64,000 nt of DNA. Source: Bacteroidota bacterium. GTDB taxonomy: Bacteria > Bacteroidota > Ignavibacteria > UBA10030 > UBA8401. Where the stretch lies: the NCBI GenBank assembly GCA_041665525.1, contig JBAYIS010000004.1, positions 46,996 through 110,995 on the forward strand, in the 5' to 3' direction. Position 1 is the first letter of the stretch, and each line of letters begins with the position of its first letter. Made by a program: the position numbers and the translations under genes. The notes beneath the pieces were generated by a model that worked only from the letters and a program-made list of their open reading frames with translations, did no database searches and was not told where the DNA came from. Shown piece after piece: positions 5,786 through 18,875 of the stretch.

Positions 5786-5799
5786 CTCGAGAGGTGTTC

Positions 5800-6162
5800 A
5801 TGTATCAACAGGAAGAGCTGAAGCTTCGTTCGAAGAAATTCGCATTGCAGATCATTTCATTGTTTAAGGCATTACCGAAATCTGATGATGCGAGAGTGTT
5901 GGGAAAACAGTTGCTTCGTTCCGGGACATCAGTTGCGGCAAACTATCGGGCATCATGTAGAGCAAGATCAAAAGCGGAATTCATTGCGAAGATCGGAATT
6001 GTCGTTGAAGAGGCCGATGAGACTGTTTTGTGGATGGAAATGTTGACCGAATCCGGGATACTTCCGATACAAAAAACAGAACTGTTGTTGAAAGAAGGGA
6101 ATGAACTGCTAGCAATCTTTGCAGCATCGTACCACACGGCTAAATATGGAAAAAACTCTTGA
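5800..6162 (+). CDS. Four-helix-bundle protein (TIGR02436 family: 23S rRNA intervening-sequence protein, DGR Avd-like)
   Basis: LGKQLLRSGTSVAANYRASCRARSKAEFIAKIGIVVEEADETVLWMEML matches the family signature (R-S-x-x-S-V-x-A-N-Y-R-A-x-C-R-x-R-S...EF...EEADET). The RBS gagagg sits 7 nt upstream of the ATG at 5800 (the listed ORF begins at a GTG at 5794). Confidence 0.85.
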   Translation: MYQQEELKLRSKKFALQIISLFKALPKSDDARVLGKQLLRSGTSVAANYRASCRARSKAEFIAKIGIVVEEADETVLWMEMLTESGILPIQKTELLLKEGNELLAIFAASYHTAKYGKNS

Positions 6163-6165
6163 ATT

Positions 6166-6457
6166 GAAACATTGAAACATTGAACCATTGTAACATTGAA
6201 TCATTGAAACATTGAAACATTGAAACATTGTAACATTGCAACATTGAATCATTGCAACATTGAATCATTGCAACATTGAACCAATGAATCAATGAACCAA
6301 TGAATCAATGATCCGATGAACCAATGAACCAATGAACCAATGAACCAATGAACCAATGAACCAATGAACCAATGAACCAATGAATCAATGAACCAATGAA
6401 TCAATGATCCGATGAACCGATGAACCAATGAACCAATGAACCAATGAACCAATGAAC
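6166..6457. repeat. 8-bp tandem repeat array, about 36 units, from the same family as 5621-5785. First come the CATTG-type units (gaaacattg / taacattg / caacattg), then the CAATG/CGATG-type units (gaaccaatg / gaatcaatg / gatccgatg).
   Basis: Read directly from the sequence. It begins 3 nt after the four-helix-bundle stop and ends 11 nt before the ddl ATG. Confidence 0.85.
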
Positions 6458-6467
6458 TATTTTTTCT

Positions 6468-7589: not shown

Positions 7590-7811
7590 GCTTCGTAGAT
7601 TATCGCAATACCGGTGCCGAATCTATTCTCTCAGAATGGAATCGGCATTGTTGATTTAAACTGCTTTGCGGCGTCCTTTACAACTATCTTTTCGGTACTG
7701 TGTGATAGGAAACATCGACAGATGTGGAATCGGACAAACGAATCTTTGACCCGTCATATCTTTTTATTATACTGTACGCGCTGGGGAATATGAACCATCA
7801 ATGAGAATGCT

Positions 7812-8681
7812 ATGATCAGCAAAGAATTCCTCTCGAAAATACCGATCTTTAAATTCCTTCCGGAAGAGGATCACATCTCACTTGTGAGCTTGTGGAGAAT
7901 GAAATCCTTGAATGCCGGCGAAGTTCTTTTTCGAAAGGGAGAACCGGGTTCTTCCATGTATGTCATTGAAGAAGGCGAAATCGAAATCGTACTGCCGGTC
8001 GATCCGCCGGTAAATGAAGTTCAGCTGTCAATCATGCGGGAAGGTGAATTTTTTGGAGAGCTGTCGCTCTTTGCCGATACGCCGCGCACCGCGACGGCGC
8101 GGGCTTCGGTTGATACGAAACTCGTGGAAATGCAGCGGGGAGATTTTATTACGTTCGTGATGGAACGTCCTTCCATCGGCATTTCCATGCTGAGCGAAAT
8201 GGCGAAACGCTTGCAACTGACGAATGAGTTGATCACTTCGCTTGCATCGAAGAATCTCAACGAAGAGATCGAAGAAAAACTGACATTCGGCGACCGGGTT
8301 GCCGATAAGATCGCCGAGTTCGGCGGAAGCTGGAGATTTATCATTTCATTCGGTGCGTTTATGGCAATGTGGATCGGGATTAATGCATTGCAAATTATCG
8401 CACAGCCGTTCGATAAGTATCCATTCATTCTTTTAAACTTAATGCTCTCCACCGTAGCTGCACTGCAGGCACCGGTGATAATGATGAGCCAGAACCGCGC
8501 GCAGAAGAAAGACCGTCTGAAAGCAGATCTGGATTATCAAGTGAATGTGAAATCCGAATTGATGCTGCAACAGATGCACCAAAAAATGGACCGGCTGCTG
8601 GAAGAAGAGTTGGGGCATATCCGCAGGGAAATTACGATCATGCGGCCGATCGTGCAAAAAAAGAAACGAAAGAAAAAATGA
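7812..8681 (+). CDS. Cyclic-nucleotide-binding domain fused to a DUF1003 membrane domain. The C-terminus ends in a KKKRKKK tail.
   Basis: The N-terminus carries the cNMP-binding beta-roll motifs (GEFFGELSLF...PRTATARA). The C-terminus contains FGDRVADKIAEFGGSWRFIISFGAFMAMWIGINALQ and PFDKYPFILLNLMLS, a DUF1003-like two-TM region. Confidence 0.7.
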   Translation: MISKEFLSKIPIFKFLPEEDHISLVSLWRMKSLNAGEVLFRKGEPGSSMYVIEEGEIEIVLPVDPPVNEVQLSIMREGEFFGELSLFADTPRTATARASVDTKLVEMQRGDFITFVMERPSIGISMLSEMAKRLQLTNELITSLASKNLNEEIEEKLTFGDRVADKIAEFGGSWRFIISFGAFMAMWIGINALQIIAQPFDKYPFILLNLMLSTVAALQAPVIMMSQNRAQKKDRLKADLDYQVNVKSELMLQQMHQKMDRLLEEELGHIRREITIMRPIVQKKKRKKK

Positions 8682-9745
8682 GTTCGCGCAAACCGTTCAT
8701 CATTGCCGGCATCTGGTTCTTTTTAGGATTGATCTATTCCAGTCAATCCTTTTTTTATTCTCTCAGTGTCGGACGCGAATATGTTTGGCAGCGGTCGTTG
8801 TTTCACTCCTTCGTTTTTTGCCTGGAATGGGGGGTGTTGACGCCGTTCGTATTGAAGCTTGTCGAACGGTTCCGGCTGGATGACAAAAATCTTTACCGAA
8901 ATGTAACATTGCATTTCTTTATTGGAATCGGTGTTGCCGTTCTGCAGCAGACTGCCTACGTGCTGTTCACAGATTTTGTGGAAAATGGATTCGCGTTCTC
9001 AAGAACATTCTCCGGTTATCTTCCATCTATCGTTGGTTTCTTTGAATATGGCGTGTTAATGTATTGGTCTATCGTGTTTGTTCACCACGCTGTCGGATAT
9101 TATCGTCGCTACCAACAAGAAGAGCGCCGGAGCGCCCAGTTGCGGACTGAACTGATGGAATCGCAGCTTCAGGCGCTGAAGATGCAGCTGCAACCCCACT
9201 TTCTTTTTAACACGTTGAATGCAATTTCCGTATTGGTGAAGAAGGAGCCTGTTCTTGCCCAAAAAATGATCGTACGTTTGAGCGATCTGCTGCGCTTAAC
9301 GCTGGAACGGGGTTCGGAAAACGTGGTGACACTGGAACAAGAGCTGGAATTTGTGAATACGTACCTTGCCATCGAAAAAGTCCGGTTCGGCGACCGGCTC
9401 ACAATAAAAACAGAAATTGCGGAAATGACACTCCAGTCACTTGTCCCGACATTTATTCTGCAGCCGCTGGCAGAGAATTCCATCCGTCATGGCGTCGCGC
9501 ACCGGTCGGGAGAGGGGTGGATCAAAATTCAATCTACTCAAAAGGAGCAAACACTTTTCTTGAGTGTAAGTGACGGAGGAACACGGTCAACGCGATCAAA
9601 GAAACAGAACGACGGATTTGGCGTCGGACTGGAAAATACGCAACAACGGCTCCGTCAATTATATGGAAATGCATTTCAGTTTGATATTCAGGAAAACAAT
9701 CACAACGGACGTACCGTGACACTCGCGATTCCGTTAACAAAATAG
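8678..9745 (+). CDS. LytS/YehU-type sensor histidine kinase (multi-TM N-terminus, His_kinase PF06580 and HATPase domains)
   Basis: LQALKMQLQPHFLFNTLNAISVLV is the LytS-family H-box. A C-terminal ATPase region is present. Its start overlaps the upstream gene by 4 nt. Confidence 0.8.
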   Translation: MSSRKPFIIAGIWFFLGLIYSSQSFFYSLSVGREYVWQRSLFHSFVFCLEWGVLTPFVLKLVERFRLDDKNLYRNVTLHFFIGIGVAVLQQTAYVLFTDFVENGFAFSRTFSGYLPSIVGFFEYGVLMYWSIVFVHHAVGYYRRYQQEERRSAQLRTELMESQLQALKMQLQPHFLFNTLNAISVLVKKEPVLAQKMIVRLSDLLRLTLERGSENVVTLEQELEFVNTYLAIEKVRFGDRLTIKTEIAEMTLQSLVPTFILQPLAENSIRHGVAHRSGEGWIKIQSTQKEQTLFLSVSDGGTRSTRSKKQNDGFGVGLENTQQRLRQLYGNAFQFDIQENNHNGRTVTLAIPLTK

Positions 9746-9754
9746 TTCTTCTTT

Positions 9755-10537
9755 GTGGGACACTTGGTAAAATTCGTAAACAATATTACCGCAATCATTG
9801 TGGACGACGAGCCATTGGCCCGTCACGGTCTGCACGATATTTTGGTAGAAGAAAAGGATATTACCGTCGTTGCGGAATCTAAGGATGGCGAAGAAGCTGT
9901 TCGCCACATCCGGAAATATTCGCCGGATGTTGTGTTCCTGGATATTCAAATGCCGGAGAGCAATGGATTTGAAGTATTGGATGCCATTCCCAAAGAGACG
10001 ATGCCTTTGATTATTTTTGTGACCGCCTACGATGAATTTGCCGTGAAAGCATTCTCCGAAAATGCGTTGGACTATATATTGAAGCCATTCGACAGTGAGA
10101 GGGTCCATTCGGCATTGCACCGTGTTAGGACAATGCTTCAGATGAAGGAGCGGGCGGATTATTCGAAAAAGATTTTGGAGATTGTGAAACACTATCAATC
10201 ATCCCAAAAATATATTGACCGTATTCCTATCCGCAATGCAGGGAAGATCTCGTTTGTGAGTGTCGAGGATATTATTTGGATCGACGCTGCTGCGGATTAT
10301 ATAAACCTACATACAAGCTTCGGCACGTCAACCATTCGTGAATCGATTGGAGCGATGGAAGAACAGCTTGATCCCTCCAAATTTATCCGAATTCATCGTT
10401 CAACAATCGTTAATCTTCTTTTCATCCGCGAACTGAGACCGATGGATCATGGCGAGTACACTGCACTGCTGCGACAGGGGACCATACTCACCGTCAGCCG
10501 GACATACAAAAAACGCCTCGCATCAATGATTAAATAA
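9755..10537 (+). CDS. LytTR-family response regulator (REC + LytTR DNA-binding domain)
   Basis: The REC domain shows IIVDDEPLARHGL...VVFLDIQMP. The C-terminal LytTR domain shows ISFVSVEDIIWIDAAADYINLHT. Confidence 0.85.
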   Translation: MGHLVKFVNNITAIIVDDEPLARHGLHDILVEEKDITVVAESKDGEEAVRHIRKYSPDVVFLDIQMPESNGFEVLDAIPKETMPLIIFVTAYDEFAVKAFSENALDYILKPFDSERVHSALHRVRTMLQMKERADYSKKILEIVKHYQSSQKYIDRIPIRNAGKISFVSVEDIIWIDAAADYINLHTSFGTSTIRESIGAMEEQLDPSKFIRIHRSTIVNLLFIRELRPMDHGEYTALLRQGTILTVSRTYKKRLASMIK

Positions 10538-10641
10538 ACTGTAACCATCTATTTCATCCCTGCAATTCTCCACTTCATCGCAAAACAGTTCATTTCCCTG
10601 CGAGCAAGATGTATTTTTTCCTCACAACAATAGGAGGAAGA

Positions 10642-12939
10642 ATGAAACAATTGTTCAGTTTGCTCTTTGCCGCAACTCTTGTCGTCCAGGCGCAATATTT
10701 CACCAAAGTCACTGTCGGTCCTCAATCCAATGACGGAGGAGATTCGCGCAGTGTGAATTGGGTGGATTACAACAACGACGGGAATCTCGATCTCTTTATT
10801 ACCAACGGACCGTCGGCAAAGGCGAACAATTTTCTTTACAAAAATAACGGCGATGGAACGTTTACCAAAATCATCGATGCTTCGGTAGTGAACGATCCCG
10901 GAAGTTATGACGGCAGTACCTGGGCGGATTTTGATAATAATGGTTTCCTTGATGTGTTTACAGCATCATGGTATGGACAGAAAAACAGTTTTCACCGGCA
11001 ATTGAACGGACACTTTGAGAAAGTAACACGCAGCGATATTGCCAACGATCAGACTTATTCGGAAACCGGCAGCTGGGGAGATTATGACAATGACGGGTAT
11101 GTGGATCTGTATTTGGCGAACAGTGCCGTCAACAAAGCAAACCGCTTGTACAAAAACAATGGAGATGGAACCTTCACCACTATAACAACCGGCAGCATTG
11201 TCACCGATGCAAAGACTTCCCGGAGCGTGGATTGGTTTGATTATGACAATGACGGCGATCTTGATATCTTTGTCGCCAATGAAGGAGGGGAGAACAACTC
11301 GCTCTATCGAAATGACGGCGGCGGTATATTCACATCAATCACAACCGGTGCTGTGGTGAATGATGGAGGAAACTCCTTCGGCAGCAGTGTCGGTGATATT
11401 GATAACGACGGGGATCTGGATATTTTCGTTGCCAATCATGAAAATACGGCGGCATTTTTGTACAAAAACAACGGGGACGGAACATTCGCAAAAGTCAGTG
11501 CGGATCCTGTCGTGACACAAAACGGTTACTCCGTCGGCAGTGCATTCGGCGATCTTGATAACGACGGCGATCTTGATTTGATGGTGACGAATGCATTCAG
11601 CGGCAGCGTTGCAGCAAAAAATTTTCTGTATCTCAATAATGGAAATGGAACATTCGAGAATGTCGATACCGGCATAGTTGCGAACGATCCCGGCTGGTCA
11701 TACGGCGTAGCATTCGGGGACTATGACCGTGATGGTGATCTTGATATTGCTACGGGAAACTGTTTCGGAGCGAATCAAAACAATTCACTCTATAGGAATG
11801 AAGGGAATGGTAATGCCTGGATCACGGTGAAGTCGGTCGGGACTGTTTCGAACCGTTCCGCGATCGGAGCCAAAGTGCGGGTAAAAGCTACTATCAATGG
11901 AATTCCGGTCTGGCAGTACCGGCAGGTTGCAGGTCAATCCGGTTATTGCGGACAGAATCTGGAATCCCATTTTGGATTAGGAAATGCGACGGCGGTCGAT
12001 TCGCTGGTGGTTGAATTTCCTTCAGGTCAAAAAACAGTTATGACAACTGTTTCTGTGAAACAGGTTCTGACTGTAACGGAAACAGTTCCATCCGGATATT
12101 TGCGCGGAGCATTGATCGCCGATTCGCTGGACGGAAGGATTCCGTTCACTGTGCAGTTCAGCAGTCTGTCAATTGCAGATGCATCATCTCCGGTCAATTC
12201 GTGGAAATGGGATTTTCACAATGACGGTATTGTGGATGCAACAACGGAACATGCACAATGGACCTATACCGTGCCGGACACATATTCCGTCCGACTCATT
12301 GTCTCCAATGGAAGTGCCATTGATACTGTTTTTGCTGATGGTCTCATCCGGGTGCTGCGACCCGCATCGAAGCCGGTCATCACATCGTTTCTTCCAACTG
12401 TAGCGGATACCACTATACCGAAAAACGGGAAAGTGACCTTTGCAGTTTTCGTTCTGGATACATCCGATTCTCCGGTCCGATTCGTTTGGACGAAGAACAG
12501 AGCGGTGCAGGCTTCTGTTATCAACTCACTATCGTATGTATCTGCAATTTTCCAACCGGCACCGAGAACAGATACTATTTCTGTGGAAGTCTTTAACGAT
12601 TTTTATTCGATCAAAAATATATGGTTTGTTCATGTGGCGAATCCCGCCGGCATTGGCAGCGAAGATGCTTCAATTCTGCAATATCAACTTGCCCAAAACT
12701 TTCCCAATCCGTTTAATCCCGAAACAAAAATTCAATTTTCCATTCCTGTTTCGGGCAGAGTACAGTTGCGCATATGTGATGTTCTGGGACGGGAAGTCGC
12801 ACTGTTGTTGAATGAGGAACGAGATGCGGGAATACACTCTTTCATGTGGGATGGAAGTTTTTTGGCGAGCGGGATCTATTTCTGCACTCTGCACGCTGGG
12901 TCTTTTGTTGATACTAAGAAACTGGTATTGGCAAAGTAA
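10642..12939 (+). CDS. Secreted FG-GAP/VCBS-repeat protein (ASPIC/UnbV, CRTAC1-like) with a T9SS C-terminal sorting domain
   Basis: The signal peptide is MKQLFSLLFAATLVVQAQ, with an aggagg RBS upstream. There are many D-x-D-N-D-G-x-L-D repeats. The C-terminus ...AQNFPNPFNPETKIQFSIP...GIYFCTL... is a TIGR04183-type CTD. Confidence 0.8.
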   Translation: MKQLFSLLFAATLVVQAQYFTKVTVGPQSNDGGDSRSVNWVDYNNDGNLDLFITNGPSAKANNFLYKNNGDGTFTKIIDASVVNDPGSYDGSTWADFDNNGFLDVFTASWYGQKNSFHRQLNGHFEKVTRSDIANDQTYSETGSWGDYDNDGYVDLYLANSAVNKANRLYKNNGDGTFTTITTGSIVTDAKTSRSVDWFDYDNDGDLDIFVANEGGENNSLYRNDGGGIFTSITTGAVVNDGGNSFGSSVGDIDNDGDLDIFVANHENTAAFLYKNNGDGTFAKVSADPVVTQNGYSVGSAFGDLDNDGDLDLMVTNAFSGSVAAKNFLYLNNGNGTFENVDTGIVANDPGWSYGVAFGDYDRDGDLDIATGNCFGANQNNSLYRNEGNGNAWITVKSVGTVSNRSAIGAKVRVKATINGIPVWQYRQVAGQSGYCGQNLESHFGLGNATAVDSLVVEFPSGQKTVMTTVSVKQVLTVTETVPSGYLRGALIADSLDGRIPFTVQFSSLSIADASSPVNSWKWDFHNDGIVDATTEHAQWTYTVPDTYSVRLIVSNGSAIDTVFADGLIRVLRPASKPVITSFLPTVADTTIPKNGKVTFAVFVLDTSDSPVRFVWTKNRAVQASVINSLSYVSAIFQPAPRTDTISVEVFNDFYSIKNIWFVHVANPAGIGSEDASILQYQLAQNFPNPFNPETKIQFSIPVSGRVQLRICDVLGREVALLLNEERDAGIHSFMWDGSFLASGIYFCTLHAGSFVDTKKLVLAK

Positions 12940-14802: not shown

Positions 14803-15885
14803 TTGCTACATTCAGTCATTGTGAAAATAAAATTTCTCTCTATTGTCATATTCTGGCTTCTCTTCGCCGTATTCATGACCGGCGTTATGTTGCTTGTCCA
14901 TCCTATCACCAATCGGCCTGAACCGGTGTGGCATGAGTTCATGTGGGAATTGGCTATTGCCATCGTATGGATCATTGGAACACCCATCGTGATGTGGCTT
15001 GCCAGAAGATTTTCCCTGCAGCAGAAGGACCGATTTCGAAACGGCTTTCTGTTGGTGATCATCGGCATCGTCATGTCCGCTGCGCAATGTGTTCTGCACG
15101 GGATCATTACCTATCTGACGCGATCCGATATAGCAACATTCAACAGTAACATCATCCTCACATCTCTCTTTTACAATATCGATAAGATGCTGATTATCTA
15201 TTGCGGACTGGTAATCTTGCAGCATGCGATGGATTTCTACCGGAGTTCTCAGGAGAAGGAATTGAAAGCATCGCGACTCGAAACGCAGCTGTCGCAAGCT
15301 CAAATGATGGCGCTGAAGATGCAGCTGCAGCCGCATTTCCTCTTCAATACACTCAATGCCATTGTGACACTGATCCATAAAGATCCGGACCAAGCGGAAG
15401 AGATGATCGTCCGGTTAAGCGATTTTCTGAGGATCACACTCGACGCTTCGGGTAGACAAATTGTTTCCTTAAAGGAAGAATTGGATTTCATCAAGGCCTA
15501 TTTGTCCATTGAAGAAGTGCGCTTCAAAGGGAGACTGAAATTTCACAACCGTGTTGAAGCAGATGTGTATGATGCACTGGTCCCTATGCTGATTATTCAG
15601 CCGCTGGTAGAAAATGCCATAAAACACGGATTTTCGCAGTTTGAAGGGGCTTCGGTATTGGAAATTTCAGCGCAAAAGAATAACGATATTCTGACGCTGA
15701 TCGTACAGGACGATGCTGCTCCGGACCTCGGCCAACAAACGATCAATGAAAAGATCGGTTTATCCAATATTCGCAGCCGGCTCTTGGCGTTGTATGGAGA
15801 AGCCGCTTCATTGACAATCATGCCGAACAGCAGCCGCGGCGTACGTGCAGTGATGAAAATCCCTTTTTCAGTGGAGCAGGCATGA
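14803..15885 (+). CDS. LytS/YehU-type sensor histidine kinase. It is a paralog of 8678..9745. The start is uncertain (TTG as listed; a GTG at 14821 is also possible).
   Basis: MALKMQLQPHFLFNTLNAIVTLI H-box; multi-TM N-terminus; HATPase C-terminus. Confidence 0.75.
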   Translation: MLHSVIVKIKFLSIVIFWLLFAVFMTGVMLLVHPITNRPEPVWHEFMWELAIAIVWIIGTPIVMWLARRFSLQQKDRFRNGFLLVIIGIVMSAAQCVLHGIITYLTRSDIATFNSNIILTSLFYNIDKMLIIYCGLVILQHAMDFYRSSQEKELKASRLETQLSQAQMMALKMQLQPHFLFNTLNAIVTLIHKDPDQAEEMIVRLSDFLRITLDASGRQIVSLKEELDFIKAYLSIEEVRFKGRLKFHNRVEADVYDALVPMLIIQPLVENAIKHGFSQFEGASVLEISAQKNNDILTLIVQDDAAPDLGQQTINEKIGLSNIRSRLLALYGEAASLTIMPNSSRGVRAVMKIPFSVEQA

Positions 15886-16640
15886 CGATCCAAACCCTTA
15901 TTGTCGATGATGAAGCGCTTGCGCGAGAGAGGATCAATTCACTGTTGAGCAATGAAAAAGAATTTCATGTTGTAGCGGAATGTGTCAACGGGAAAGAGGC
16001 GCTTCGGTTAATCGGCGAGAAGAAAATCGATCTTCTCTTTCTTGATATAGAAATGCCGGCGCTCGACGGCATCGGGTTACTGGAAAAACTTCCGGAAGAG
16101 AAATTACCGATGGTGATTTTTACAACGGCATACGATTCGTTCGCGGTGAAAGCATTCGAACTGAACGCGATCGACTATCTCTTAAAGCCATTCACAAAAA
16201 AACGCTTTCAGGATGCTCTTGAGCGGGTGAAACATAAATTCCGTTCTGAAGATAAAGATCTGTACTTGTCGCAAATGCTCGCCACAATCAAATCCGTTGC
16301 CGGGAAGAGCGTTTCGGACAAGCTGATTGTCAAGTCTGAAGGGAAGATCCGGTTCCTGTCTGCAACGGAAATTCTCTGGATTGAAAGCGATGCAAACTAT
16401 CTCCGGATACACACGGCCGGTGAAGCTGTCGTGATCCGGGATACGATGACCAATATTTCCGCACGGCTGGATTCTTCGGTATTTCTTCGATTGCACCGGA
16501 CTGTTATCGCCAATACAACGCACATCGTTGAACTGAAGCCGTGGTTCAACGATGAGTATATCGCCATTCTTCGCAACGGCACGCAGCTGCCCGTGGGACG
16601 GACATACCGCAAATCAGTAAACGCATTCTTCCAACTCTGA
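15882..16640 (+). CDS. LytTR-family response regulator (REC + LytTR). It overlaps the kinase gene by 4 nt.
   Basis: LIVDDEALARERI...LLFLDIEMP (REC). IRFLSATEILWIESDANYLRIHT (LytTR). Confidence 0.85.
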   Translation: MTIQTLIVDDEALARERINSLLSNEKEFHVVAECVNGKEALRLIGEKKIDLLFLDIEMPALDGIGLLEKLPEEKLPMVIFTTAYDSFAVKAFELNAIDYLLKPFTKKRFQDALERVKHKFRSEDKDLYLSQMLATIKSVAGKSVSDKLIVKSEGKIRFLSATEILWIESDANYLRIHTAGEAVVIRDTMTNISARLDSSVFLRLHRTVIANTTHIVELKPWFNDEYIAILRNGTQLPVGRTYRKSVNAFFQL

Positions 16641-16766
16641 CCGGCAAATCGGCGATTCATCCCTTTCCACCCCCCATTAATCCCGAAACCATATCCCTGT
16701 AATCGGTTTGTGCGTAGATTGCACCATCCAATACACACATTACTGCACACTCAAAAGGAACCTCCT

Positions 16767-18875
16767 ATGGTACGATCACTTCTACTTGTAATACTAACAG
16801 CGGTTACTGTAACGGCGAACATTCGCACTGTGCCGGCCGAATATGCAACGATCCAGTCAGCAATCAACGCCTCGGCGGACGGTGATACAGTCGTCGTTTA
16901 TCCCGGGACATATTTTGAGAATATCAATTTTAACGGGAAGAATATCGCCGTCACGTCGAGATTTTATGAAGCGAACGATATGCAGTTTGTTCTGCAGACT
17001 GTGATCAACGGGAGTCAACCGAAACATCCGGACACTGCAAGCTGTGTGTTGATCGTCTCCGGAGAAAATTCCTCTGCTGTGCTACAGGGATTCACATTAA
17101 CGGGAGGGAAGGGAACGCGATGGACAGATGAACACGGTGCGGGAATATATCGCGAAGGGGGAGGAATATTGGTCACGTTTTCTTCGCCGGTGATACGGTA
17201 CAATTATATCGTCAATAATGAGATCCTCAATACGGACAATGTCACGAGTACCGGCGGCGCCGGCATACGGATAGGAGACGGCGGCGGCATTATTGAAAAT
17301 AATGTGATCACTTTAAACAAAGCGATGTACGGTGGCGCCATCGTGCTGAACTATTGTTCCGGAACGATCATACGGAATAATATGATTGTGGAAAACAGTG
17401 TCCGTCAATATGATCAGTTCAAGCAGGGATTCGGCGGCGGCGGTATATGGATGGGTGCACCGAAACCGGGCGATGCATCTTCAAATATCGTTGAAAACAA
17501 TACCTTTTATGGGAATATCGCTTTGGACAATTGGATGTTGAGTGCGCTTGCTGGTCGTGGCGGTGCAATGATTATTCACGGCAGAGCGAAAGCGATTGTT
17601 CGCAATAACATACTGTGGGAAAATCATTCGTCCTATCCGATCCCGTCACTTGCGATTATGGCCGGCACTCACCCTGTGGAATATAATGATATCATGGGAG
17701 GATATTTGGGCGTTGGCAATATCGATGCAGACCCGCAATTCGCCGACTCCGGATTCATCCTGAAACCATCTTCTCCTTGCGTAGATGCAGGTGATACATC
17801 TTCACTTTCGTTCGATCCTATGGATGGATTAGTTGCCCGTTATCCGGCAAAAGGAACGGAACGGAATGATATGGGAGCATACGGCGGACCCGGCAGTCTT
17901 GCGTTTTTTGCTTTTTCCCGTCCGAGCGTCTACCTTCCGCTCGATCAGGTGAATTTCGGTTTACTGCTGCCGGGAGATTCGATATCACAAGGATTGACGG
18001 TGGTCAATTTTGGTTCGAAGGCGGCAGTGATTGACAGCATTCGGTTCACTTCGGCAGAGTTTTCCACAACAATCAGTATTCCGTTAACAATGGAAGTAAA
18101 CACATTGGAATCACTTCATCTTCAGTTGAAACCGTCGGAACAGAAGCGATACACTGACACAATGTTCATTTATCATAATTCCACCTTCATTCAGAATCCG
18201 CTGAAGGTTGTTCTGCGCGGGAGTTCAATTCCTACGCCCTTGATGAGCGTGAATCTGCTGGAACATAACTTCGGTGTTCTGGATATCAATACGCCATTGA
18301 AGGACACCACCATCTATATTCATAACCATGGGACGGGAAAAGATTCGATCCGTGTTTCGCTGAATTTCTCAACGGTAAAACCTGCGGATGCAATGACACT
18401 CTCGCAGACTGTGTTCACTCTTGCAGCGGGAGATTCACAGGCGGTGACATTTACATTTCATCCAAAGCAGATCACGAAGACGATCACCGGTCTCTATACT
18501 CCGCGAATCCTTTTTAAATCTTTCTTGGGAGAGGATACCACAACCGTCGAAAAAATTATGCGGTTCAAATTGTCGGGAATTCTCGGCCTTGGGGATAATT
18601 CCGTTGCCGTCGGGGAATACTCACTGAACCAAAACTACCCGAATCCTTTCAATCCGTCTACAAACATTAGGTTCACTGTTGCTGCGGATGGTCCTGTGCT
18701 ATTGAAAGTGTTTGACATCCTCGGAAATGAAGTTGCAACAATAATCAATAAGTACTTGAGTGCAGGCGAGCATCGCATTGAATTTAGTGCTGACCGGCTT
18801 GCCAGCGGGATCTATTTTTATCGGTTGATAGCAGGTAATTTCACCTCCATTAAAAAGATGACGGTCTTAAAATGA
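16767..18875 (+). CDS. Secreted right-handed parallel beta-helix (pectate-lyase-fold) protein with a T9SS C-terminal sorting domain
   Basis: Signal peptide MVRSLLLVILTAVTVTA. Repeated NNxI / GGAI beta-helix rungs. C-terminus ...NQNYPNPFNPSTNIRFTV...GIYFYRL.... Confidence 0.75.
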   Translation: MVRSLLLVILTAVTVTANIRTVPAEYATIQSAINASADGDTVVVYPGTYFENINFNGKNIAVTSRFYEANDMQFVLQTVINGSQPKHPDTASCVLIVSGENSSAVLQGFTLTGGKGTRWTDEHGAGIYREGGGILVTFSSPVIRYNYIVNNEILNTDNVTSTGGAGIRIGDGGGIIENNVITLNKAMYGGAIVLNYCSGTIIRNNMIVENSVRQYDQFKQGFGGGGIWMGAPKPGDASSNIVENNTFYGNIALDNWMLSALAGRGGAMIIHGRAKAIVRNNILWENHSSYPIPSLAIMAGTHPVEYNDIMGGYLGVGNIDADPQFADSGFILKPSSPCVDAGDTSSLSFDPMDGLVARYPAKGTERNDMGAYGGPGSLAFFAFSRPSVYLPLDQVNFGLLLPGDSISQGLTVVNFGSKAAVIDSIRFTSAEFSTTISIPLTMEVNTLESLHLQLKPSEQKRYTDTMFIYHNSTFIQNPLKVVLRGSSIPTPLMSVNLLEHNFGVLDINTPLKDTTIYIHNHGTGKDSIRVSLNFSTVKPADAMTLSQTVFTLAAGDSQAVTFTFHPKQITKTITGLYTPRILFKSFLGEDTTTVEKIMRFKLSGILGLGDNSVAVGEYSLNQNYPNPFNPSTNIRFTVAADGPVLLKVFDILGNEVATIINKYLSAGEHRIEFSADRLASGIYFYRLIAGNFTSIKKMTVLK

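Follow-up and report, generated by a model that had tools for sequence, protein, structure and literature searches.

A DUF1003 membrane protein with a cyclic-nucleotide-binding domain in a Bacteroidota genome, encoded by a conserved core gene with a likely lineage-specific kinase cassette downstream

In group B Streptococcus (Streptococcus agalactiae), no gene depends more strongly on CiaR than the DUF1003 gene SAN_2180, which is required for intracellular survival; its product has a Lactococcus lactis homologue with a role in acid and multistress tolerance (PMC4839699). In Streptococcus mutans, the DUF1003 gene SMU_1307c acquired recurrent missense and nonsense mutations during laboratory evolution (PMC9163064). 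In our literature search, these phenotypes came from the only two papers that mention DUF1003, and the search returned no study of proteins in which DUF1003 is fused to a cyclic nucleotide monophosphate (cNMP)-binding (CNB) domain, and none of cNMP-binding accessory proteins for LytS/LytTR systems. Here, we analysed such a gene, designated CNB::DUF1003, in a 64,000-nucleotide stretch of contig JBAYIS010000004.1 from a Bacteroidota bacterium (hereafter the window), where it lies directly ahead of a histidine kinase gene (HK1), a LytTR response regulator gene (RR1) and a gene for a cargo protein of the type IX secretion system (T9SS). The initial annotation of the window had proposed that the protein serves as an accessory input to this LytS/LytTR system. 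The results showed that CNB::DUF1003 evolves slowly and is inherited vertically as a core gene, with neighbours that vary by clade, and that it stands here beside a fast-evolving accessory module. The kinase adjacency likely reflects an operon fusion in a single lineage, as opposed to a partnership across the family.

The 289-aa open reading frame (ORF) at 7812–8681, with an N-terminal cNMP-binding beta-roll and a C-terminal DUF1003 domain of two transmembrane (TM) helices, had been recognized in the initial annotation, and both domains were confirmed by Pfam. The cNMP_binding family (PF00027) matched residues 31–117 (E 7e-21, 74.4 bits, gathering cut-off 27.5), and DUF1003 (PF06210) matched residues 171–266 (E 5e-37, 126.7 bits, gathering cut-off 27.4). 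The ORF is 100% identical to a protein of a metagenome-assembled genome (MAG) at NCBI (P0001), annotated as "DUF1003 domain-containing protein" [Bacteroidota bacterium], and the best 120 database matches all had the cNMP::DUF1003 architecture. Public databases already include this architecture and the identical protein; CNB::DUF1003 is an unremarkable member of an annotated but uncharacterised family. The 3′ end of the gene reads ...AAAAAATGA (AAA AAA TGA), and the kinase ORF begins at the ATG inside ATGA at position 8678, giving the stop/start overlap of 4 nt that had been noted earlier. The junction of CNB::DUF1003 and the kinase gene contains no terminator-like site (two weak matches lie just within the kinase ORF), and no obvious Shine-Dalgarno sequence precedes the kinase ATG. 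Judging from this junction, it is plausible that the kinase is co-transcribed with, and translationally coupled to, CNB::DUF1003 in this genome.

The gene neighbourhoods were compared in 80 species-representative genome loci and four contigs retrieved by exact-protein look-ups (84 loci, numbered with the prefix L). A kinase was present downstream of CNB::DUF1003 in five of the 80 species-representative genomes, all of them in the closest clade. This clade A (72–88% identity) comprises FCB-group MAGs labelled Bacteroidota or Ignavibacteria, with ddl as the conserved upstream neighbour. Seven of its members, including the window, carry the cassette of kinase, regulator and cargo genes (the other six being L001, L006, L008, L009, L011 and L016), whereas nine are without it (L003, L005, L007, L010, L012, L013, L014, L015 and L017). 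In L005, L014 and L015, the next gene matching a window protein encodes the M28 peptidase that follows the cassette in the window; since the same flank occurs without the cassette, the cassette represents a three-gene indel. Its distribution on a neighbour-joining tree was patchy, with L005 nested among the carriers yet devoid of it and the basal members lacking it too. Outside clade A, none of the 67 loci with identities of up to 62% had a LytS-type kinase within 6 kb. The clade B loci (52–62% identity, Ignavibacteria) have an M20 peptidase gene upstream and a PduO-type adenosyltransferase gene downstream. In clade C (39–48% identity, Pyrinomonadaceae), CNB::DUF1003 is preceded by a conserved ORF of 126 aa and followed by two convergent VWA genes; neither clade has the kinase. 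Classification of the neighbours revealed no conserved soluble partner gene across clades. The gene pair is thus largely not conserved as neighbours in related genomes, an outcome that the initial annotation had named as speaking against its proposal.

The sequences of the adjoining genes diverged at different rates. In the same genomes, Ddl and CNB::DUF1003 were 76–90% and 76–88% identical to their window counterparts, respectively, and the corresponding values were 64–72% for HK1, 53–64% for RR1 and 56–70% for the cargo protein. CNB::DUF1003 is thus as conserved as Ddl. The cassette is a self-contained module with its own putative operator and is restricted to some members of a single narrow clade.

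These data bear directly on the accessory input suggested initially, in which the CNB::DUF1003 protein would be a dedicated sensor that binds cAMP or cGMP and whose TM hairpin then contacts the membrane domain of the co-translated HK1 and sets its activity, coupling the cNMP level to the LytTR-driven T9SS cargo gene. The ATGA overlap is kept in nine of nine resolved loci that carry an orthologous kinase, the junction holds no terminator-like site, HK1 has a TM bundle with neither an extracytoplasmic nor a cytoplasmic sensor domain, and the step from LytTR regulator to cargo is backed by conserved direct repeats, all of which would suit such a sensor. On the other hand, the adjacency is confined to one narrow clade and patchy even there, the sequence and the tail of CNB::DUF1003 are unchanged in the kinase-less relatives, the evolutionary rates of the two partners differ about two-fold, a paralogous kinase module in the window (HK2) works without such a partner, and LytTR-type repeats lie ahead of both cargo genes and not ahead of CNB::DUF1003. 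Moreover, the same type of overlap ties CNB::DUF1003 to ddl in relatives, which indicates that overlap is a habit of a compact genome and not a functional signature. We therefore regard a dedicated accessory sensor as quite improbable, and CNB::DUF1003 and the kinase are probably not a dedicated signalling pair.

The co-expression that had been read from the overlap fares better, being plausible here. In the kinase-less loci L007, L014 and L017, the final Lys codon AAA followed by TGA also produces ATGA, and the overlap with the kinase could therefore arise by recruitment of a pre-existing ATG. All HK1 orthologues share an N-terminus of the form M-x-x-[RK]-[RK]-P-x-I-I-x-G-x-W that starts at the overlapping ATG. 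Metagenome kinases 66–75% identical to HK1 follow CNB::DUF1003 with the same overlap, whereas kinases 30–41% identical do not. The HK1 lineage is known only from this position, and CNB::DUF1003 is unchanged where the kinase is lacking, which makes the relationship asymmetric.

Several observations weigh against regarding the protein as a cNMP-regulated core protein with an incidental cassette. Every HK1 orthologue found (nine of nine resolved) sits behind CNB::DUF1003 with the same 4-nt overlap, and the sensor region of HK1 is membrane-embedded only, a type that might in principle respond to a membrane protein as partner; a lineage-specific functional link between the two proteins is possible. 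In addition, no cyclase was identified in the part of this genome covered by the window.

Turning to the sensor half, the phosphate-binding cassette FGELSLFADTPRTATARA lines up residue for residue with functional PKG/PKA sites and carries the G-E-[LI] and R-[ST]-A motifs. The CNB domain aligned with those of PKG, PKA-R, CRP and SthK (E about 3e-13 for SthK). G82, E83 and R92 are invariant across 82 homologues from at least four phyla. By alignment, the residues that bind the cNMP phosphate are intact; the intact cassette together with the invariant residues indicates that the sensor half is very probably ligand-competent, with cAMP and cGMP as candidate ligands. Arg92 is followed by Thr93, the position that favours cGMP in PKG and cyclic nucleotide-gated (CNG) channels.

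A CNB domain joined to TM helices superficially resembles the architecture of Pycsar/CBASS-type antiphage effectors, which would disrupt the membrane when triggered by a defence cyclase, and PADLOC gave weak matches of the CNB part to Pycsar TIR effectors and to the PycC model (24–35 bits). However, the matches were confined to the CNB domain with none to PycTM, no adjoining gene in any of the 84 loci encodes a cyclase, and the stable housekeeping context (ddl or M20/PduO) with slow vertical evolution is the opposite of a defence island. We rejected an effector of this type on these grounds and consider it hardly conceivable.

The linker between the CNB C-helix and TM1 is conserved. N148, N150, G160 and D165 are invariant in the alignment of the 82 homologues, and linker identity in clade B is 70% vs. 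52% for the CNB domain. A first AlphaFold2 model of the full-length protein, built with 12 sequences, gave predicted local distance difference test (pLDDT) values below 50 for the DUF1003 half. A second model, restricted to residues 140–289 and built with 112 diverse sequences including stand-alone DUF1003 proteins, reached a mean pLDDT of 85. The latter consists of a short amphipathic helix, TM1 (174–197), an 8-residue outer loop and a single very long helix (206–288), in which TM2 runs on for about 60 residues into the cytoplasm. The model confirms the two-TM domain of the initial annotation as a predicted hairpin, the ends of which would be cytoplasmic given the location of the CNB domain. 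The PDB sequence search produced matches for the CNB half only, and the DUF1003 half submitted alone had none.

The invariant residues cluster in the hairpin and its cytoplasmic exit, and they include GSW-F, W187, N191, D201, P204, LNL-LS (N209, S213), Q219, P221, IMMSQNR, D234-R235 and E249. In TM2, the invariant small or polar residues N209, S213, A216/A217, A220, I223/M224 and Q227 recur every 3–4 residues and thus lie on one helical face. The hairpin with the IMMSQNR motif is 60% identical across phyla vs. 19% for the tail. The poly-Lys tail noted in the initial annotation is present as QKKKRKKK, and all close relatives have a Lys/Arg-rich tail, which varies in sequence yet is always basic in clade A, kinase downstream or not.

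An exhaustive search with the DUF1003 half recovered 6,310 clusters (50% identity), the majority being stand-alone proteins with lengths of 130–250 aa; the CNB-fused form occurs in roughly 590 GTDB genomes. Among 150 diverse representatives, cNMP_binding was the only recurrent fusion partner (13 of them). Where the fused proteins have their CNB domain, the stand-alone ones have a CxxC...C N-terminal region, and the linker after it is the same (SL...N...E...G-R-AD), so the N-terminus looks like an exchangeable regulatory module on a constant membrane module. Tandem fusions of the hairpin were also found, with two copies in five proteins (P0121, P0138, P0144, P0146 and P0262) and four copies in P0141 (596 aa), and the four-copy fusion retains the hairpin and loses the long helix. 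The sequences of these fusions suggest that DUF1003 units may pack together, perhaps as dimers or tetramers. The extension of TM2 into a long helix and its single face of invariant small or polar residues are further hints of oligomers.

Two interpretations of the membrane half were weighed on this evidence. DUF1003 might be a non-conducting anchor or scaffold, in which the cNMP reshapes the long helix and basic tail or alters their oligomeric state, whereupon this region recruits or releases a soluble partner, an anionic lipid or a nucleic acid at the membrane. Such a role fits a C-terminal half that is mostly one long cytoplasmic helix with a basic tail, an N-terminal regulatory module that can be swapped between CNB and CxxC region, and best fold matches that are coiled-coil and scaffold proteins, but non-specific. 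It sits poorly with the concentration of conservation in the TM hairpin and the membrane-interface IMMSQNR motif over the tail, with the invariant polar residues inside the TM helices, with the loss of the long helix from the four-copy fusion, and with the want of a soluble partner gene shared across clades. We judge the scaffold unlikely.

In the interpretation that we favour, DUF1003 homo-oligomers would mediate or control cation flux, with the ligand signal relayed through the linker to TM2. The pointers to cations are all weak and comprise transporter neighbours, sub-threshold Pfam matches and the streptococcal and lactococcal stress-tolerance phenotypes cited above. In 10 of 25 Acidobacteriota loci, a gene for CorA (L061, L064, L067 and L069) or Nramp (L074, L075, L079, L080, L081 and L084), which are two unrelated divalent-metal transporter families, was located 0.5–2 kb upstream of CNB::DUF1003, and this recurrence weakly hints at a link with cation homeostasis. 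The low-affinity iron permease family PF04120 recurred as sub-threshold, non-significant Pfam matches in 5 of 112 DUF1003 proteins (best E 0.41), and a tblastn search of plasmids for remote relatives annotated as "iron permease" returned only DUF1003 proteins. Control of cation flux is a tentative assignment, which we find somewhat doubtful.

Taken as a whole, a cNMP-regulated core membrane protein with an incidental kinase cassette is our favoured explanation, held with as much doubt as confidence. An N-terminal cytoplasmic CNB domain is joined by the conserved linker helix to the DUF1003 module, whose hairpins would assemble as membrane homo-oligomers that mediate or control cation flux. Binding of cAMP or cGMP would be relayed via the linker to the TM2 helix and alter DUF1003 activity, and in stand-alone family members the CxxC...C region would take the N-terminal regulatory position instead. 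In this lineage, the kinase cassette would have been fused downstream, the kinase start being the ATG supplied by the Lys codon and TGA. The kinase and regulator would thus share in the transcription and translation of a core gene with steady expression, and the linkage of CNB::DUF1003 to the kinase would be an expression arrangement, not a dedicated sensor–kinase partnership.

The window holds two paralogous modules of kinase, LytTR regulator, operator-like site and T9SS cargo gene, which share the pattern TTCATC-N15-TTCATC. HK1 had been called a LytS histidine kinase; its His_kinase/HATPase_c core stood, whereas Pfam found no 5TMR-LYT sensor domain and NCBIfam gave no match, and HK1 is "LytS-type" in its catalytic core only. 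The NCBIfam models nearest to RR1 were BtsR and LytR, both below their cut-offs. In the spacer between RR1 and the cargo gene, the repeats TTCATC(CC)...TTCATCGCAAAA, 21 nt apart from start to start, are conserved in seven cassette-bearing loci. Downstream of them follow a TAnnTTT-like element, a GGAGGA ribosome-binding site and an ATG. The mechanically assigned start of the cargo 1 ORF at 10609 falls within the promoter-like TAnnTTT element; the true start is likely at 10642, as suggested by the conserved GGAGGA, the ATG and the signal-peptide start MKQLFSLLF.

The second module (14803–18875) follows the M28 peptidase gene and lacks any DUF1003 partner. HK2 is 36% identical to HK1 over the full length, membrane domain included, and just past RR2, upstream of cargo 2, lies the pattern TTCATCCC...TTAATCCC, which has one mismatch. 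Two direct repeats at this spacing, about two helical turns, represent the classic geometry of LytTR operators (AgrA-type sites). The presence of TTCATC repeats ahead of both cargo genes supports the view that each LytTR regulator drives the adjacent T9SS cargo gene through the putative operator, so that this part of the initial annotation gains support from the predicted sites. The positions of all these features are listed in the table.

Table. Features of the CNB::DUF1003 locus and of the two kinase–LytTR–cargo modules in the window
Feature	Coordinates	Strand	Description
Spacer between ddl and CNB::DUF1003	7590..7811	+	222 nt; hairpin and sigma70-like match
CNB::DUF1003 gene	7812..8681	+	289 aa; ORF, Pfam PF00027 and PF06210
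cNMP-binding beta-roll	7902..8162	+	Residues 31–117; Pfam PF00027
Phosphate-binding cassette	8049–8105	+	Residues 80–98
Conserved linker	8217..8321	+	Residues 136–170; SLASKN-N-E...G-D-R-AD; connects CNB C-helix with TM1
DUF1003 domain	8322..8609	+	Residues 171–266; TM1 174–197, outer loop PFD-YPF, TM2 206–226, IMMSQNR...KDR, start of long helix
C-terminal helix extension and basic Lys/Arg tail	8610..8678	+	Residues 267–289
Kinase HK1	8678..9745	+	355 aa; polytopic membrane N-terminus, His_kinase (PF06580), HATPase_c
Response regulator RR1	9755..10537	+	Response_reg and LytTR (Pfam)
Putative LytTR operator 1	10553..10579	+	TTCATC-N15-TTCATC, 21 nt start to start; exact match; direct-repeat family D1
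T9SS cargo 1	10642..12939	+	FG-GAP/VCBS repeats, UnbV_ASPIC, PKD, Por_Secre_tail (Pfam, NCBIfam); start likely
Kinase HK2 and LytTR regulator RR2	HK2 14803–15885, RR2 15882–16640	+	Pfam; no DUF1003 gene upstream
Putative LytTR operator 2	16656..16682	+	TTCATC-N15-TTCATC with one mismatch
T9SS cargo 2	16710–18875	+	Ig-like domain and Por_Secre_tail

In most close relatives, ddl runs into CNB::DUF1003 with a stop/start overlap of 1 or 4 nt (TAATG or ATGA), and the 222-nt spacer between the two genes is therefore specific to this genome. It holds a strong hairpin after ddl at about 7611–7650 (RNA fold z = −2.3) and a sigma70-like promoter match, TTGACC-16-TATACT, at 7746–7773. An Rfam scan of this leader and the operon revealed no riboswitch or other family, and a pattern search found no LytTR-type repeat in the leader. 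Other genes are inserted at the same junction in L001 and L009, the L001 inserts being three genes for an M74-like peptidase, an unknown protein and a small T9SS-tail protein. The inserts and the spacer together mark the junction as a rearrangement hotspot. Upstream of ddl lies a PF05635 gene (23S rRNA-intervening-sequence protein family; 5794–6162), the position of which is kept in several close relatives. Between it and ddl, a tandem array of about 300 bp (6163–6461) repeats an 8-nt period (TGAACCAA / ATTGAAAC) in some 20–30 copies and gives rise to a spurious minus-strand repeat ORF of 67 aa; the only Rfam matches, to plant miRNA models and sub-threshold, fell on this array.

The neighbourhoods of the more distant homologues showed further regularities. 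In clade B (L019–L056), the gene for the PduO-type ATP:cob(I)alamin adenosyltransferase follows CNB::DUF1003 on the same strand in 21 loci, often overlapping it (e.g., L019:6857–7474), and the M20 peptidase gene precedes CNB::DUF1003 in 22 loci. In clade C, the ORF of about 126 aa, which belongs to no Pfam family, is directly upstream of CNB::DUF1003 and co-directional with it (L060:1281–1661), with equivalents in 22 Pyrinomonadaceae loci (e.g., L061:5547–5921) and the invariant motifs WER...SAHR...NNLLILGP...PRYL..TPFDSP. This ORF might encode a partner specific to the clade. A second, divergent CNB::DUF1003 paralogue is encoded on the opposite (minus) strand, within 2 kb of the first, in some Acidobacteriota loci (L070:131–877, L072:980–1990 and L082:7796–8671).

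As evaluated here, the CNB::DUF1003 protein itself matters little, with its ordinary known architecture and a kinase link that is a lineage-specific operon arrangement. The two modules and their putative operators, a by-product of this study, may serve the study of T9SS cargo regulation in Ignavibacteria and Bacteroidota better than the DUF1003 finding does. The wider DUF1003 family, which comprises over 6,000 clusters (50% identity) and occurs in bacteria and in one archaeon or more, deserves attention, and its CNB-fused branch offers a defined ligand as an experimental handle. In the boldest interpretation, a large family of small cation channels or transport regulators, all homo-oligomeric, would have gone unrecognised in DUF1003. 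Its CNB branch would add to the MloK1/SthK type another class of cyclic-nucleotide-gated membrane conductance in prokaryotes, with no structural relation to the first, and in one Ignavibacteria-like lineage the expression of this branch would have become coupled to a LytTR circuit that controls a secreted T9SS protein. We think it improbable that all of this holds.

Comparison with known systems places the protein and its neighbours as follows. The Pycsar effectors PycTM and PycTIR likewise fuse a CNB domain to an effector module, whereas CNB::DUF1003 has no adjacent cyclase or PycTM match and behaves as a housekeeping gene. With the CRP/FNR factors, the protein shares the CNB domain and the long C-helix after it. 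However, HTH_Crp is absent and the NCBIfam CRP match covers only residues 31–155 (55 bits against a cut-off of 266); the annotation of relatives as "CRP/FNR family regulator" in some sources was rejected because no helix-turn-helix (HTH) domain is present. The downstream cassette has in common with LytS/LytR, BtsS/BtsR and AgrC/AgrA the PF06580 core, the LytTR regulator and two direct repeats 21 nt apart at a putative target promoter. It differs from them in having no 5TMR-LYT domain, no NCBIfam equivalog and a T9SS-secreted FG-GAP/ASPIC protein as target, and our literature search found no member of these systems that uses a CNB::DUF1003 accessory protein.

The MloK1, SthK and LliK channels are, like CNB::DUF1003, membrane proteins with a cytoplasmic CNB domain and an intact cassette, and by analogy a ligand-controlled flux through an oligomer could be similar in the latter. 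In those channels, the CNB domain is C-terminal to the membrane part, whereas here it is N-terminal. Since no Ion_trans pore of six TM helices or selectivity filter was detected in the protein, which shows only PF00027, PF06210 and a two-TM hairpin of an unrelated family, it is not a channel of the CNG, hyperpolarization-activated cyclic nucleotide-gated (HCN) or MloK1 type. SAN_2180 and SMU_1307c are stand-alone proteins (about 130–250 aa) with a CxxC-type or unannotated N-terminus and no cNMP-binding domain. They nevertheless share with CNB::DUF1003 the same two-TM domain (PF06210), with its invariant GSW...W...N / PFD-YPF / LNL-LS-AA-Q-P-IMMSQNR-KDR, and the same linker before TM1.

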